Shown: positions 5,499-21,036 of the stretch, piece by piece
Layout of the letters: each line of letters begins with the position of its first letter
Numbering within the stretch: the stretch's first letter is position 1
From: a virus
Direction: 5' to 3' (one strand)
Virus record (IMG/VR): IMGVR_UViG_3300044647_001247
Location: 1 to 64,000 of that record
DNA length: 64,000 nucleotides
Notes under the pieces: model-generated
The model's database searches: none
Told to the model about the DNA's origin: nothing
Seen by the model: only the letters and a program-made list of their open reading frames with translations
Made by a program: the position numbers and the translations under genes

Positions 5499-5783
5499 TT
5501 ATTTAATTATTATTGTCAACTTTGTTTTACGATTACCTCTGTTAATTCTAGAAATAATCATTTGTTTTTCCAATGATTTTAAAGATCTTGTTACTGTAAC
5601 AGGTGCAATACTCAATTCAGAAGCAATAGTGTTCACACTAACTACTAACTGATTATTCTCGCTATCTGCAAATGTACATAAGTAAGCATACATTGCTTTA
5701 TCTCGTATACATATGTTTGGATCTCTCATTACAATACATGTACAAAATCCAAAACCACCTTTTTTTAAACGTGGATTAGACAT
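5499..5783 (-). CDS. winged helix-turn-helix DNA-binding protein
   Basis: KAMYAYLCTFA..SVNTIASELSIAPVTVTRSLKSLEK, a replication-initiator-type HTH pattern. Confidence 0.8.
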   Translation of the reverse strand: MSNPRLKKGGFGFCTCIVMRDPNICIRDKAMYAYLCTFADSENNQLVVSVNTIASELSIAPVTVTRSLKSLEKQMIISRINRGNRKTKLTIIIK

Positions 5784-9321: not shown

Positions 9322-9363
9322 AAAATAAAAATAGCCCAGTGTATATAACACACACTGGGCATT
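9322..9363 (-). terminator. intrinsic terminator
   Basis: gcccagtgt/acactgggc stem followed by a U-tract on the minus strand. Confidence 0.7.
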
Positions 9364-11241: not shown

Positions 11242-12249
11242 TTATTTGAGATCTGCAATAATCTTGTCCTTCAAAGTTTCATCCCAATGCATAGAAACAA
11301 GGGATAAAACATCCTTCTTGGTAAAAGAATTAACTAAAAGAACAGTGGCATCATAGAAACTACGAGTAGAAAACTCTTCATTATCTACGTGCTTTTTCAT
11401 CCAACCTCTCACTCTGTTAAGCCAGTCATAGTGATTTCCAGCAATATGCTTTTCTAATTCCTCGTCATAGTTAATAACTATACGTGACATTTTAAATCTG
11501 TCTAGAAAAGCCTTATCCTGAATCTCACGTCCACTGTAATCTATAGAGCCACTACCAAATGTGTTACCTGCAAGGATGCAATAAAACTCAGGATGTTTAA
11601 CTGCTACAGGTTTTTCCACACGGTTGGGTACACCTAATTGTCCAGAACGATCAAATGCAGCATTTAAAACCACACTGATATTTGGACTCATTGCATCAAA
11701 CTCATCTACAAGAAACACACCACCATTCTCATAAAACTTGAGAAATGTAGATTCTATGTAGCCATTTATGTTAGCAAAGCCTAATAATTCAGACTTACTT
11801 GCTTCCATATTACAAGAAAAGCTTCCAAAAGGAAGATTCATAGCTTTAGCAGCTTGGCTAGCCATAGTGGACTTCCCAGAACCTGTTGGTCCTACAATAA
11901 GAGCTTGTTTGTACAGAGAAAGAAACTTAATCAGCTTGGTAAGCTCTTTATGAGCAGTGGGATCATCAACAGTGGCAATTTTTACGCTGTTTAAGTGAAT
12001 GTCTATACGTTTAGATTCAAGAAAGCTCTCAATGATAGAATCCCGAGTAACTGTGAGATCTGATGTAATCTGTTTTTCAAGAATATCTTTTAACTCTTTC
12101 TTGATTTCGGCAAAACTGTCAAGGCTGGTTTCTACAACAGATGTTTTAATCATCTGCTGGATTTTTTCGTGTCTTAGTTTATAAGACACAATTTCGTTGA
12201 TTTTAGCTGCTACCACTTCTTGTGGAATGCTAATTGAAAATTCACTCAT
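11242..12249 (-). CDS. MoxR/CbbQ/CobS-type AAA+ ATPase
   Basis: GPTGSGKS; GGVFLVDEFD; HPEFYCILAGNT; YSGREIQDKAFLDRF. Confidence 0.9.
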   Translation of the reverse strand: MSEFSISIPQEVVAAKINEIVSYKLRHEKIQQMIKTSVVETSLDSFAEIKKELKDILEKQITSDLTVTRDSIIESFLESKRIDIHLNSVKIATVDDPTAHKELTKLIKFLSLYKQALIVGPTGSGKSTMASQAAKAMNLPFGSFSCNMEASKSELLGFANINGYIESTFLKFYENGGVFLVDEFDAMSPNISVVLNAAFDRSGQLGVPNRVEKPVAVKHPEFYCILAGNTFGSGSIDYSGREIQDKAFLDRFKMSRIVINYDEELEKHIAGNHYDWLNRVRGWMKKHVDNEEFSTRSFYDATVLLVNSFTKKDVLSLVSMHWDETLKDKIIADLK

Positions 12250-12666: not shown

Positions 12667-13047
12667 TTAAACTTTATTGCAAATTGCTCTATGTAGATTG
12701 GAAATACTCTCAAAAGTGAACATTTGACATCCTACGTGCACTATTTTATTCACTCTATCTATTTTAGCAGTGTAATTAGAATTTAGTTTTACATCATCAT
12801 TATTAGCCCATTCATCACAAAGTGCTATAAATTTTTCTACACTTATATTGTTAACATAAAGTGAGCTAGCTCCAATAAACATACCATCATTAAACCAAAG
12901 ATGAATAAAACCCTTATTATATGAATCTCTACCTGTTTCTGCATATACAGGAACATCTTTACTTCTAGCATAATTAGCTAAAAACTCAAATAATTCTGCA
13001 TTACATGGTGTAACTGAAACGTCTTTAAAAATTGATAAATCTTTCAT
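12667..13047 (-). CDS. hypothetical protein
   Basis: 126-aa ORF with a C-terminal VHVGCQMFTFESI motif; A/C-rich leader like its neighbours. Confidence 0.7.
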   Translation of the reverse strand: MKDLSIFKDVSVTPCNAELFEFLANYARSKDVPVYAETGRDSYNKGFIHLWFNDGMFIGASSLYVNNISVEKFIALCDEWANNDDVKLNSNYTAKIDRVNKIVHVGCQMFTFESISNLHRAICNKV

Positions 13048-13086
13048 GGTTTGTGTGTTTTTATTGTTATTAATTAGTAAATACTG

Positions 13087-13513
13087 TGGAGCCGAGGGGA
13101 GTCGAACCCCTGTCCAAACAAGTCAATCATAATACCATTTTTACATGCTTAGCTATACTGTACACAGTAGCAAGAGTTTAATCTGTTTAAGCTGCCTCCC
13201 AGACATTAAACTGCTGTAGTCCACACAGTTCACTTATTCTGATTAGTATTGGGGTCATACTGGTGTATAACCTTCCACCACTCTGTTCTATTACGTGCAA
13301 ACAGAGAAGACACGTGTGCTTGTGACCGTTATGAACGCTGGTCAGGCGATGTATTATGCAGCAACTGCTACACGTACATTAGCGAAAGCCATATTGATAA
13401 TGGCTGCGCCTTCAGATTGACGGTTGTCAATTATTGTTTAGGAGTTGTTTGGCTCTCCCAAGCCTTGCATGTGATACTATCATTACCCTTGCTGTCAAAA
13501 CCAATACGGCCCC
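13087..13513 (-). ncRNA. ssrA: tmRNA; tag ORF 13354-13428 encodes DNRQSEGAAIINMAFANVRVAVAA
   Basis: 5' GGGGCCGTATTGGTTTTGAC; 3' GACAGGGGTTCGACTCCCCTCGGCTCCA; acceptor GGGGCCG/CGGCTCC with G3:U70; ATAATT before the resume codon; tag ends in AA-stop. Confidence 0.93.
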
Positions 13514-13536
13514 ATAATGTTAAAAATGTGTTAATG

Positions 13537-13770
13537 CTATATACGTCTATCATCTTTTTTTTGATGTTCTCTAGTGCACCATCTAAGGACTTGAATTGAT
13601 TCACCACAAAGTGTCATCTCCCTACCATCGTATACAATTTCTTTTTCATCCATCCCAAAGAATATCATATCTCTAATGGCACCTAGTTTACTGAAATCAT
13701 CCTCTGTTTCAGCTATAAGTTTATATCCTACACGCTTTTCATCATCGTTGTAAATGAATTCTATTTTCAT
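13537..13770 (-). CDS. hypothetical protein (probable start MKIEFIY)
   Basis: ORF 13537..13839; internal ATG preceded by an A-rich leader. Confidence 0.6.
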   Translation of the reverse strand: MKIEFIYNDDEKRVGYKLIAETEDDFSKLGAIRDMIFFGMDEKEIVYDGREMTLCGESIQVLRWCTREHQKKDDRRI

Positions 13771-13834
13771 AATTGATTGATTTTTAATTGTTTGTGTATA
13801 TTGTTTGAAGAAAATAATTAAATAAATTCCCCTT

Positions 13835-14154
13835 TGCACAACAGATGTAATAGTAAATAATTATATCTTTCAGTATCTACCTCGTAAGGCGTTCAGATAA
13901 ATTATTATGATCAACTATTACATCTGTTTTCTCACCTCTTGAGAGCTGATTAATTAGTGGCTTTTTTACTAGGTAGTATCCACCAAGGTTGGTTACACAT
14001 TTAAGGCTAATGTTTCACCGTTACCTGTTGATTAATCAGGTCTGCTTACACACACATCTTATGAAGTAACCTCTCATCACCTTAAAGGCTCAAGGTACAA
14101 GTTAACTCCTGTTTAATACTTTCGCTAAGAAATGTGTCCACGTGAGAATGTGCA
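13835..14154 (-). ncRNA. putative multi-branched structured RNA (~320 nt), unclassified
   Basis: Nested helices 13835-40/14149-54, 13840-54/13914-28 (15 bp perfect), 13929-35/14142-48 and 13946-54/14031-39; no ORF. Confidence 0.5.
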
Positions 14155-14164
14155 TTGGAAAATA

Positions 14165-14263
14165 ATGTATGCTCTCAACCTTCCCAACTTTCTTACCCTT
14201 TCAAGAAAATGACTCTTAAAAATTAGAGGTATGGTAATAGGATTTCTACCAGAGAGCATACAT
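14165..14263 (-). ncRNA. putative structured RNA (~100 nt)
   Basis: Perfect 12-bp closing helix atgtatgctctc/gagagcatacat. Confidence 0.35.
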
Positions 14264-14266
14264 ATT

Positions 14267-14405
14267 TGGTCCCATAAGCAGGAATCGAACCTACACACAT
14301 ACATATGTTCCAGAAGGAGAACATATAATGTAAAAACCCCTAAACCCGACTGTTTAGTGTTTTCTTAATAGAACTGTCGCTCTATTAGTGATGCCAATCT
14401 ACGGG
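14267..14405 (-). ncRNA. tRNA-mimic RNA (139 nt) with acceptor stem, T arm and encoded CCA
   Basis: CCCGTAG/TTATGGG-A-CCA; T arm GTAGG-TTCGATT-CCTGC; three long hairpins replace the D, anticodon and variable arms. Confidence 0.65.
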
Positions 14406-14420
14406 AATTATATAACAAAA

Positions 14421-14584
14421 GAGCCCTGTTCCCTCTGCGTTCAGTTGTAATAGCAAGCCAATAACACAAAAATGTTATCTGTTTGCTGCAAGACTTTGTT
14501 CACGTATATAAAATACGTAGCTGTTTAGGCATTCTCTTTATCTCACTATTACAACTGCCTGTCCTTGGGAAACAGGAATGACGC
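14421..14584 (-). ncRNA. putative pseudoknotted RNA, unclassified
   Basis: 12-bp helix 14442-53/14546-57; hairpin CCTGT/ACAGG whose loop TTCCC can pair with downstream GGGAA; GCGT/ACGC closing stem. Confidence 0.5.
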
Positions 14585-14800
14585 ATTAGAATTGTATGTC
14601 CACCCTACATATTTGCATCACAAGAACATAAAAGCTCTATTTGGCCAAGCAAAACTGCCTGTTCTCTACAAATATGCATCACGGATGCATTAAGACACTA
14701 CACGGTCACATACAATATATTAAAAGAATGGTTTTGGTGAATTGGAAAGAAATGGTGAACCAGACTCATTCAAGAGCCCAGTTCACCATAATGCGTTTAG

Positions 14801-15055
14801 TTAGACAGCTATAGTACGAACCCATAACTTATCATCAAACTCCTCAACATACTTGTCAAGAGATTGGGTCAGTATAGCACATCCTACTTCAAAATTGTCT
14901 TTGGCTTGCTTTCCATATATGATATAGAAAGCTTCATAAAGCCATTTCCAACCACGCTTTTGTTTAGCCTGGATAGGAAAATACCTACGTGTACCACGAG
15001 GACTGTCTTTAACTACTGATTGAGCCATTAAAGGCTGTAAGTAATCTAAATTCAT
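14801..15055 (-). CDS. hypothetical protein
   Basis: 84-aa ORF co-oriented with the early region. Confidence 0.6.
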   Translation of the reverse strand: MNLDYLQPLMAQSVVKDSPRGTRRYFPIQAKQKRGWKWLYEAFYIIYGKQAKDNFEVGCAILTQSLDKYVEEFDDKLWVRTIAV

Positions 15056-15144
15056 AACAATTTGTTTAGCTGTATACAGCCATTTTGGTGACCTTACTCC
15101 CAGAAAGTTCTGGTTTCAACGCACTAGCCTTAACACCTGCTAGT

Positions 15145-15175
15145 AAAAAAAGAAAAGAGCCCTGTTACAGGCTCT
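15145..15175 (-). terminator. intrinsic terminator
   Basis: AGAGCC-TGTAACAG-GGCTCT followed by TTTCTTTTTTT on the minus strand. Confidence 0.6.
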
Positions 15176-15665
15176 GTTCAATTAATAACTCACTCAATCT
15201 CTCTTTATAGAAAGATAAATCTATTTCTAATTGGTGAATTAATTCTTTCTGCTCAGTGTACCAAACACTATACTCTTTTGCATCAGAATCATTTTCTACA
15301 TTAAAAGGAGGAATACATAAATCATATTGAGCAGTAGTGAGTTCAGCAGATGTATCACTTATAAGCTTACGAACATCTTCTATTTTTGCTGAGATGTTAG
15401 TAATAAATGGTGTATCATCAGCAAGTAACAACTGAAATCCAGAATTACACACCATAAAGAAATCATCATCAGATTGAATAATATCTCCCACTGATGTACT
15501 TCTACAAGGAGTTATTGGATTCCAAGGCTCATCAAAATTCTGAGAAAGGTAGTAAGCTTCATCTAAAGAAATAGCTTCTACACAACCAACATACTTCCTA
15601 GGTTGTACATCAACTTCCTGAAATCCATTTGGTTCATAACAATGGTAAATTAAATACAGAGCCAT
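15165..15665 (-). CDS. YodL-like domain plus coiled coil (probable start MALYLIY)
   Basis: RSTSVGDII motif preceded by LDEAYYLSQN. Confidence 0.65.
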   Translation of the reverse strand: MALYLIYHCYEPNGFQEVDVQPRKYVGCVEAISLDEAYYLSQNFDEPWNPITPCRSTSVGDIIQSDDDFFMVCNSGFQLLLADDTPFITNISAKIEDVRKLISDTSAELTTAQYDLCIPPFNVENDSDAKEYSVWYTEQKELIHQLEIDLSFYKERLSELLIEQSL

Positions 15666-15896
15666 ATAATTAGGGTTTTGGTGAATGAATGTAATATATA
15701 GCCATCTTATCCGCGACAAAAATTTCTTGATTGGTAATAGAAACAAATGAGAAAAAGTGTGGTTGTGTTACTACCATTCACACAACCACACATAAAACCT
15801 TGACAATCAACACATTACCATTGATTATCATTAGGGAATTCCGGCTTTTTGTTCTAGGGAACTTCAGGAAATCCGGATTACAACCTGATTGAGAGC

Positions 15897-20920: not shown

Positions 20921-21013
20921 TGTAAGGTGGTGAAACTGGTAGACACGCCACCTTGTCTCGGTGGTGCTTTTACTAATAATAAAAGCTTGGACGTTCAAAT
21001 CGTCCCCTTACAG
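20921..21013 (+). tRNA. atypical tRNA: class II (Ser/Leu-like) body with GTC (Asp) anticodon
   Basis: TGTAAGG/CCTTACA plus G73; D arm GGTGAAACTGGTAGACAC; CCACC-TTGTCTC-GGTGG; long variable arm GCTTTTA/TAAAAGC; GGACG-TTCAAAT-CGTCC. Confidence 0.75.
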
Positions 21014-21036
21014 CTTAAAAAACCCAATAGGGTTGG

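Follow-up and report, generated by a model that had tools for sequence, protein, structure and literature searches.

The phage record IMGVR_UViG_3300044647_001247 of the IMG/VR database carries, on one strand, an island of structured RNAs that includes a predicted self-cleaving ribozyme of the twister type. The DNA analyzed here, called the window throughout, is the first 64 kb (64,000 nucleotides, nt) of this 110-kb record. We consider it fairly probable that the island is a minus-strand RNA-processing array of the phage, likely running on into a gene for a 77-amino-acid (77-aa) protein, a transfer-messenger RNA (tmRNA), and the genes beyond. Close relatives carry different subsets of its units, which makes the island an array of modules rather than one large RNA. 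When folded as single sequences the units were only modestly better than shuffles (z −2.3 to −3.4), and relatives were sought for this reason. Six loci were brought in through the neighboring 84-aa protein, and their comparison was the turning point of the analysis; the real support for the folds of the island is comparative. Coordinates are collected in Table 1, and loci other than the window are cited by L numbers.

A predicted ribozyme of the twister type

The twister-type element is laid out as N/A-A, P2, a 2-nt strand for the first pseudoknot (PK1), P4 with the loop UUCCCAAGG, a stem in the P5 position, the 3′ strand of P2, and finally G-A-GGG. The family consensus reads N/AAUGCAC-C-AUWM-(5-bp hairpin, loop UUCCCAAGG)-CAGUUGUAAU...variable...AUUACAACUG-A-GUGCA-GAGGG, where the slash marks the predicted cleavage site. 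Published criteria for twisters name a cleavage site 'NA', a general acid A, a general base G, a PK1 of the form 'NC', and a complementary second pseudoknot (PK2), and give the P4/L4 of the rice twister as CCGGTCCCAAGCCCGG (PMC11662667). The layout of the phage family agrees with these criteria, the rice P4/L4 included, with a less certain PK1.

The individual positions read as follows. The N-A step lies in L1 directly 5′ of P2 (U14588-A14587-A14586 in the window), and both adenosines are invariant in all 50 sequences of the alignment from which our covariance model was built. P2 encloses the P4 hairpin; in the same alignment both helices are paired in 100% of cells, with compensatory changes in three of the five pairs of P2 and four of the five of P4, and in a larger set of 104 sequences the paired fractions are 99.2% and 98.3%, respectively. 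L4 is of the UCCCAAG type, its sequence UUCCCAAGG being kept also in rows where the retrieval pattern did not force it. PK2 (T1), which joins the CCC of L4 to the GGG 3′ of P2, is paired in 97.5% of cells, and its middle pair has changed from C-G to A-U in L009:995-1092 and L079:5118-5203, again rows unforced by the retrieval pattern; the pseudoknot was absent from the model that made the alignment. At the PK1 position, the dinucleotide CC (UC in the window) could form pairs with the terminal GG of L4, in which the C-G pair never varies. The N position, however, shows covariation with the nucleotide preceding the P2 3′ strand as well (C-G 86, U-A 6), and these two pairings compete. The general-base G, followed by A, is found in GUGCA-G-A-GGG and in the window, where it is G14435, as ACGCA-G-A-GGG; these two positions are invariant in our first alignment (A2) and are kept in unforced rows.

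For comparison, twister sequences were fetched from 150 Clostridia genomes with the Rfam model RF03160. Two of them (55.5 and 53.3 bits) read U/AAUGCA-GCC-(P3)-GA-CGG-UCACAAGC-CCG-UGAUAAAA-UGCA-GAGUG or, with the 3′ end written as one string, U/AAUGCA...UCACAAGC...UGCAGAGUG. The Clostridia twisters and the phage family have in common the 5′ string UAAUGCA, the L4 string UCNCAAG, and the 3′ string UGCAGAGNG. From its sequence, we classify 14588-14430 as a twister-type variant that is uncatalogued, lies outside the present Rfam family, and is predicted to cleave itself. A literature search on the motif strings returned no relevant paper.

A pattern made from the shared outer parts found the family in at least 120 IMG/VR phage contigs, and our own covariance model gave 116 matches in 100 loci. 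In a set of 104 distinct sequences, pairing is present in 98.5% of pair cells, as compared with at most 56% in slid controls, and 16 of the 24 pairs show compensatory changes, the catalytic pseudoknot among them. The P5-position stem is present in every member. Its base, CAGUUGUAAU, is strongly conserved; its interior varies freely from about 30 to 250 nt and is unrelated between copies, and a collection scan for the P5 insert of the window copy gave zero matches. Some members also carry a large insert inside L4. An ORF (open reading frame) starts within 100 nt downstream of about half of 78 copies, a count made with no control. Arrays of several copies are common, as in L119:7077-8638 (four copies within 1.6 kb) and L069:9868-10483 (three within 0.6 kb). 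As a separate observation, a P5 insert common to L091:10111-10257 and L115:4442-4589 holds the T-arm-like string UAGGUUCAAAUCCUA; some P5 cargoes may themselves be tRNA-like.

The family is essentially a phage feature, because in a set of 185,579 bacterial and archaeal species, each represented by one genome, our model confirmed true copies in only four contigs of metagenome-assembled genomes. The retrieval pattern (19 specified bases) matched 13 times in this set of 596 Gb, where about 17 matches are expected by chance. Herpetosiphon, Massilia, Bacillus, and others were considered as hosts or carriers and rejected, their pattern matches not being confirmed by the model; when the model was run on five of the pattern-matched bacterial genomes, no copy was found among the 150 candidates scored, of thousands, too small a share for the result to be informative.

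A three-way-junction RNA next to the predicted cleavage site

Directly upstream of the ribozyme lies a second RNA family, here called u126, which is new. It consists of an outer helix, a 3-bp hairpin with the loop CNNNUAGU, the junction UUAAY, a 6-bp helix, a GUGA bulge, and a distal helix. In the short forms, of 66 to 72 nt, the distal helix is capped by a GNRA tetraloop; in the window copy (insert of about 60 nt) and in L131 it carries an insert. Alignment A4, of nine sequences, has 98.5% of cells paired, with compensatory changes in 9 of 24 pairs, as compared with no more than 51.5% of cells paired in slid controls. No Rfam match was obtained at E values up to 10, either in the scan of the island or with a canonical copy. 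Readings of u126 as a hammerhead, pistol, hatchet, or hepatitis delta virus-like ribozyme or as a kink-turn were rejected by eye, as the core strings do not fit.

The window copy of u126 ends 3 nt before the predicted twister cut site, which is the P0 position, and the spacing is 3 to 5 nt across the window, L052, L069, and L129. Elsewhere u126 is found inside the P5 of a twister (L018/L130, L060/L131, and L132). In L131:1366-1492 another copy of the u126 motif is nested within the distal helix of the first.

A conserved derivative that has lost the catalytic residues

Our model had a second match in the window genome, further downstream on the same strand, overlapping an element that we call subtype C. 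The frame of a twister is recognizable in its P2 (AAUGCAC/GUGCA) and its P4 (CUCAC/GUGAG, enclosing a 185-nt insert), and P5 differs from the family consensus by a compensated change from U-A to A-U. The residues that define a twister are another matter: the general-base G, the CCC of PK2, and the C of PK1 are not present together. In the 3′ core, GUGCA-A-AGGGG, the general base is replaced by A; the loop is CUCUCAAGAG in place of UUCCCAAGG; the C after P2 is gone; and the 3′ GGGG pairs with an upstream UUUUCC as an ordinary P1. No cleavage is predicted for this element, because twisters reportedly do not tolerate defects that affect PK1, PK2, and the general base in combination (PMC11662667), and it is probably a non-cutting scaffold derived from a twister.

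Subtype C is a conserved form and not the product of random decay, because the same derived states recur in other loci. Four of them (general base G to A; CCC to CUC, CUU, or UUU; loss of the PK1 C; and pairing of P1 with GGG) are present in the window, L193, and L115, and the derived states are also found in L195. In a collection scan, the exact loop string of subtype C was matched by L115 alone, and a metagenome scan found L193 and L195 together with a chance match within a coding region, L194. A related subtype that is catalytically intact by sequence has its inserts in the corresponding position, where stems formed by GUGG...CCAC and CUGAUUAA...UUAAUCAG are conserved.

Modular gain and loss among relatives

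The units of the island come and go independently. In L002, whose 84-aa protein is 99% identical to that of the window, a variant of the tRNA-like RNA described below is directly followed by a variant of the twister-type unit in which the outer parts are identical and the interior is completely different. L003 has two copies of the twister outer parts and a Hatchet ribozyme (Rfam RF02678, 78 bits) at 5578-5710, which precedes the 84-aa gene homologue by 300 nt, with the twister-type copies in the same 2 kb. In L006 and L007 the whole island is absent. The close relative L193 is without tmRNA, tRNA-like RNA, u126, and u99; its order is terminator, twister (same frame, other P5 insert), small ORF, subtype C, terminator, and a homologue of the 77-aa gene.

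The edges of these changes can be exact. L052:1683-1990 and L128:400-590 have flanks that are about 98% identical and differ by a 156-nt indel whose edges coincide exactly with one twister unit: it begins with the A just 3′ of the cut site and stops at the final G of GAGGG. In the window, the linker that follows the ribozyme is identical at 17 of 17 nt to the 3′ half of the intact terminator ahead of the L193 twister (1083-1099). This stretch of the linker is a scar left by recombination between modules.

The tRNA-like RNA, u99, and tmRNA

The unit that follows the linker resembles a tRNA without an anticodon. Sequence reading and the consensus fold agree on the acceptor stem, discriminator, CCA, and T arm, and three hairpins replace the D and anticodon arms (fold z −2.6). 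It is not a cloverleaf, and neither ARAGORN nor the Rfam model RF00005 called a tRNA at 14405-14267. Its only relative is the variant in L002, which keeps the fold with two compensatory pairs and with one-sided changes that all still pair; that copy has no encoded CCA and a different apical loop. Phage genes for tRNA-Arg(UCU/CCU) are closely similar to it in the T arm and the 3′ acceptor strand, and from this similarity the RNA looks to be derived from a tRNA-Arg gene. A pattern scan for further copies returned almost exclusively true genes of the tRNA-Arg type. An acceptor stem and T arm forming a minihelix with CCA are sufficient for RNase P (ribonuclease P) and CCA-end enzymes, as model substrates of bacterial RNase P have made clear.

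The next unit, u99, has a predicted fold whose z score is −3.4 for the minus strand and −4.3 for the plus strand. Beyond subtype C and the 77-aa gene, the tmRNA is found by both Rfam and ARAGORN. It has a tRNA-like domain and a tag frame that ends ...ANVRVAVAA followed by a stop, with a hydrophobic-Ala-Ala degron. The tag peptide proposed by ARAGORN (13425-13351, minus strand) is in a frame without the usual Ala-Ala end; the ANVRVAVAA frame is the plausible tag. ARAGORN also places three phage tRNA genes about 2.5 kb from the tRNA-like RNA. It further calls a 94-nt tRNA-Asp(GUC) with a long variable arm at window positions 20921-21014, which the Rfam tRNA model does not report and which is also present in L002.

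Setting and layout of the island

All units lie on the minus strand, as do the neighboring genes, which form a block of small minus-strand genes; terminase and portal genes are on the plus strand, from about 21 kb. Read along the minus strand the order is 84-aa gene, terminator, about 980 nt, 77-aa gene, tmRNA, and a 126-aa gene. In the 980 nt from the terminator to the 77-aa ORF, the coding strand has no ORF of 60 aa or more. The same terminator hairpin lies 3′ of the homologous 84-aa gene in L002 and L003. The 77-aa frame stays open in its L193 homologue (89% DNA identity); the small ORFs beside the island, the 77-aa gene included, had no PHROG or Pfam match, and blastn of the island against GenBank phages gave no match. 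Genes for RtcB and SmpB were not found in the 110-kb record, which is 84% complete. The DNA of the window is also present in 22 lake-water metagenome runs.

Table 1. Positions of the features of the RNA island and its borders in the 64-kb window
Feature	Position	Strand	Remarks
Intrinsic terminator of the 84-aa gene (15055-14801)	14789-14752	−	16-bp stem, 7 G-C pairs, U-rich tail
TCACCAAAAC motif, possible promoter element	14740-14731	−	about 15 nt upstream of first RNA unit
Three-way-junction RNA u126	14715-14592	−	new family; homologues in 12 IMG/VR contigs (BLAST and pattern scan)
Twister-type ribozyme, type P1 layout (self-cleavage predicted)	14588-14430	−	own covariance model 98.6 bits, E 2.8e-22
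Predicted cleavage site	U14588/A14587	−	layout N-A, then P2
Twister P2	14585-14581 with 14439-14435	−	
Twister P4/L4	14576-14558	−	loop UUCCCAAGG
Twister P5 base	14557-14546 with 14453-14442	−	
Twister P5 insert	14545-14454	−	92 nt
Twister 3′ core GAGGG	14435-14431	−	
Linker, ribozyme to tRNA-like unit	14429-14406	−	remnant of terminator hairpin 3′ half
Anticodon-less tRNA-like RNA	14405-14267	−	7-bp acceptor stem, A discriminator, encoded CCA, T arm with UUCGAUU loop
Helix-closed unit u99 (predicted)	14263-14165	−	99 nt; 12-bp closing stem; directly upstream of subtype C (P0 position)
Subtype C, probable twister-derived scaffold	14163-13826	−	second own-model match in genome, 13966-13816, 26.7 bits, E 2.6e-4
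Subtype C P1	14163-14157 with 3′ GGGGAAU	−	
Subtype C P5	13926-13915 with 13853-13842	−	CAGAUGUAAUAG/CUAUUACAUCUG
77-aa protein gene	13770-13537	−	ORF list; between RNA array and tmRNA
tmRNA	13513-13084	−	Rfam RF00023 88.9 bits (gathering 47), full model length; ARAGORN 13513-13086

A preliminary description of this DNA, made from the letters alone, had seen a gene-poor stretch tiled with helix-closed units. That tiling was borne out, and the borders it drew match family borders to within a few bases. Its unit at 14591-14716 is the conserved three-way-junction motif. The tRNA mimic that it placed at 14267-14405 is real, as is its tmRNA; the mimic proved to have a 7-bp acceptor stem, CCA, and a T loop. 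Two further units proved real with an identity that it had not foreseen: the 'pseudoknot unit' at 14421-14584 is the twister-type element, and the '320-nt multibranch RNA' at 13835-14154 is the diverged twister copy. For the unit at 14165-14263 a fold is indeed predicted, but no homologue was found in about 190 fetched loci or in a collection scan. The hairpin at 14752-14789 had been counted among the island RNAs; it is instead the terminator of the upstream 84-aa gene and thus the upstream border of the island. Of the checks it had proposed, an Rfam scan returned the tmRNA and nothing relevant for the other island units at E values up to 10, and the covariation looked for among homologues was found in both the twister-type family and u126 (the 16 and 9 of 24 pairs given above).

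Possible start signals were also considered. The string TCACCAAAAY occurs three times in the window, each time on the minus strand (14731-14740, 15082-15091, and 15675-15684), and three copies of the TCACCAAAAC motif were found in 4 of 100 shuffled windows. Each copy follows a terminator or precedes the start of a gene or RNA. The motif recurs ahead of two neighboring genes and at matching places in the relatives L193 and L002. It may act as a promoter or leader element of the phage.

Transcription and a proposed course of processing

Downstream of 14752, the next strong minus-strand terminator in a simple scan was at 9360; the only candidate in between, at 11835, is a weak stem of 5 bp that lies within an ORF. 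One long precursor is plausible because no strong minus-strand terminator intervenes. Among metatranscriptome contigs, a 373-nt contig lies wholly inside the tmRNA (99% identical), and the twister P5 domain of a relative is covered at about 91% identity; the flanking ORFs have no such cover. This is a weak hint that the tmRNA and the P5 domain accumulate as RNAs. No contig covered u126, the tRNA-like RNA, u99, or subtype C, and with contigs from one study this lack of cover is uninformative.

The course of events that we propose is as follows. One transcript would start near the TCACCAAAAC motif, just downstream of the terminator of the 84-aa gene, and would first contain the three-way-junction RNA. 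Cleavage by the twister at U14588/A14587 would give this upstream RNA a 3′ end with a 2′,3′-cyclic phosphate, and the ribozyme with its 92-nt P5 insert would head the downstream fragment, which would begin with a 5′-OH. RNase P and a 3′ processing enzyme may then excise the anticodon-less tRNA-like RNA. The 99-nt hairpin-closed unit would follow, and after it the twister-derived fold, which, being without catalytic residues, would stay in one piece as a scaffold. Next would come the mRNA for the 77-aa protein, and finally the tmRNA, presumably released by RNase P. The preliminary description had pictured one precursor punctuated by tRNA-like ends. A long precursor is indeed plausible, and the tRNA-like RNA and tmRNA are plausible substrates for RNase P or RNase Z; the clearest processing mark, however, is the twister-type ribozyme.

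Beyond this course of processing, we offer a broader and decidedly more tentative idea, namely that the twister fold serves as a portable RNA frame. Its core would set an end by self-cleavage, exchangeable cargo would be carried in P5 and sometimes in L4, and whole frames would move as cassettes with ribozyme edges. The frame might be kept after catalysis is lost for a second, non-catalytic job, such as protecting or presenting cargo, and u126 might be either cargo or a client that is given its 3′ end.

Alternative explanations

Several results weigh against our account. P1 is weak, with 63% of cells paired over five candidate pairs and none seen in the window copy. The Rfam twister models (RF03160 and RF02684, with RF03154 in the full scans) had no match in the window at E values up to 10, and at the same threshold there was none in seven loci or in two of the shortest family members. 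Our own model scored the Clostridia twisters at only 7.1 bits (E 2.8), aligning exactly the shared strings, so that the link to twisters is one of shared architecture and core nucleotides, with no significant profile match. In alignment A2 the invariance of L4 and of the P5 base was imposed by the retrieval pattern, and alignment A5 was fitted to the nested pairs of the model and favors them. The tRNA-like RNA has a single homologue. For u99 none was found in about 190 fetched loci or in the collection scan, and it therefore stays a prediction from its fold. A scan for sigma-70 promoters gave no more matches than shuffled sequence, and no promoter was identified. The transcript data consist of contigs from two metatranscriptome runs of one lake study.

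Some of these points would also suit a reading in which the resemblance to twisters is superficial and the unit is a structured RNA without catalytic activity, such as a pseudoknot that binds a ligand or a protein. The silence of the Rfam models and the weak or absent P1 speak for it, and subtype C demonstrates that the fold can persist for other reasons. We nonetheless find it improbable: the catalytic and pseudoknot positions named in the literature are all present and nearly invariant, unforced rows included, the pseudoknot covaries, real twisters have the same core strings, and P1 is dispensable for cleavage according to a review (PMC6154101). A different proposal, raised in the preliminary description, is that the released RNAs, chiefly the tRNA-like one, are decoys or sponges for anticodon nucleases or RNA-sensing defenses, or modulate translation together with the tmRNA. 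In its favor, the tRNA-like RNA retains CCA, the acceptor stem, and the T arm, is similar to phage tRNA-Arg genes in its 3′ part, and sits in one block with the tmRNA, near the three phage tRNA genes. Yet the anticodon-like loop differs between the only two copies (UCCUUCUG as compared to CCUGAUA); the stem below it, of 10 to 14 bp, does not have the geometry of an anticodon arm; the L002 copy has no encoded CCA; the close relative L193 lacks the RNA altogether; and neither a nuclease target nor a defense context can be read from the sequence. An anti-defense role is unsupported, and we consider the proposal as a whole quite unlikely.

That the whole 0.9 kb forms a single particle, one large ornate RNA of the GOLLD or ROOL type, is an explanation that we reject as very improbable. 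The stretch is long and protein-free, it adjoins tRNA-type genes in a phage, and its global fold has many long-range helices. Against this, neither family was matched by Rfam at E values up to 10 (positions 12900-15300), each helix-closed unit is self-contained, the units occur alone or reordered in other phages, and a self-cleaving ribozyme in the middle of the array would split such an RNA. A more serious rival, though in our estimate still an unlikely one, holds that the units are selfish or neutral RNA cassettes that shuffle among phage genomes without benefit to the phage. Much of the comparative record is compatible with it: the cassette-sized indel between L052 and L128, the subsets and orders of modules that differ in close relatives, the several copies per locus (four in L119, three in L069), the unrelated P5 inserts, and the terminator remnant beside the window twister. 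On the other hand, the core is conserved with compensatory changes in more than 100 sequences, which argues for selection on the fold, though perhaps for the cassette itself. The units are also placed consistently by genes and RNAs, as in the uncontrolled count of nearby ORF starts among 78 copies, and no mobility gene (reverse transcriptase or endonuclease) lies beside them here. An RNA-processing array of the phage is the reading that we prefer.

Relation to known systems

The ribozyme comes closest to type-P1 twisters that have P0 and P5 as accessory stems (RF03160; Roth et al. 2014, outlined in PMC6154101 and PMC11662667). The order of elements is the same (N/A site, P2, PK1 strand, P4 with a UCCCAAG loop, optional P5, P2 3′ strand, G-A, PK2 3′ strand), the strings 5′ UAAUGCA and 3′ UGCAGAG are identical to those of two Clostridia twisters, P2, P4, and PK2 covary, and a structured element lies directly upstream in the P0 position. 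Unlike catalogued twisters, the phage family is not seen by any Rfam twister model, has a weak or missing P1, carries inserts in L4 in some members, and is nearly restricted to phage contigs. It always has a stem in the P5 position, which is found in about 1% of catalogued twisters (PMC6154101).

Self-cleaving ribozymes have been described as clustering near phage-related genes (Weinberg et al. 2015, summarized in PMC10085705 and PMC6765202), where the function put forward for them is the processing of polycistronic transcripts. The island and its relatives are similar in that ribozymes lie beside ribozymes and structured RNAs in phage DNA, as with the Hatchet and two twister-type copies of L003; they differ in adding a tmRNA, a tRNA-like RNA, a new three-way-junction family, and a disabled twister derivative.

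With the tRNA-like domain of tmRNA and with YrlA, a bacterial Y RNA, the tRNA-like RNA has in common a minihelix of acceptor stem and T arm with CCA. It has neither the mRNA-like domain and tag frame of the former nor the long Ro-binding stem of the latter, has no Rfam match to either, and is like tRNA-Arg in its 3′ part. GOLLD and ROOL (Rfam RF01998 and RF03087) are usually found as long, protein-free stretches next to phage tRNA-type genes. The island has that setting; it differs in having no match to either model and in being made of independent modules that are found separately in relatives.

Significance

The clustering of self-cleaving ribozymes near phage genes has been known for a decade. 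The island and its relatives give a concrete and testable picture of it, drawn from a ribozyme family that the standard catalogue misses and that is nevertheless common in phage contigs. The features of note are a ribozyme at the 3′ edge of a conserved RNA, hypervariable inserts, the gain and loss of exact cassettes, and a conserved derivative without catalytic residues. If cleavage and its products are confirmed, a new ribozyme model and a new RNA family would be added to the annotation of phages, subtype C would be a natural case in which a ribozyme fold has been put to use as a scaffold, and the action of the RNA islands that phages carry around their tmRNA and tRNA genes would become more accessible to study.

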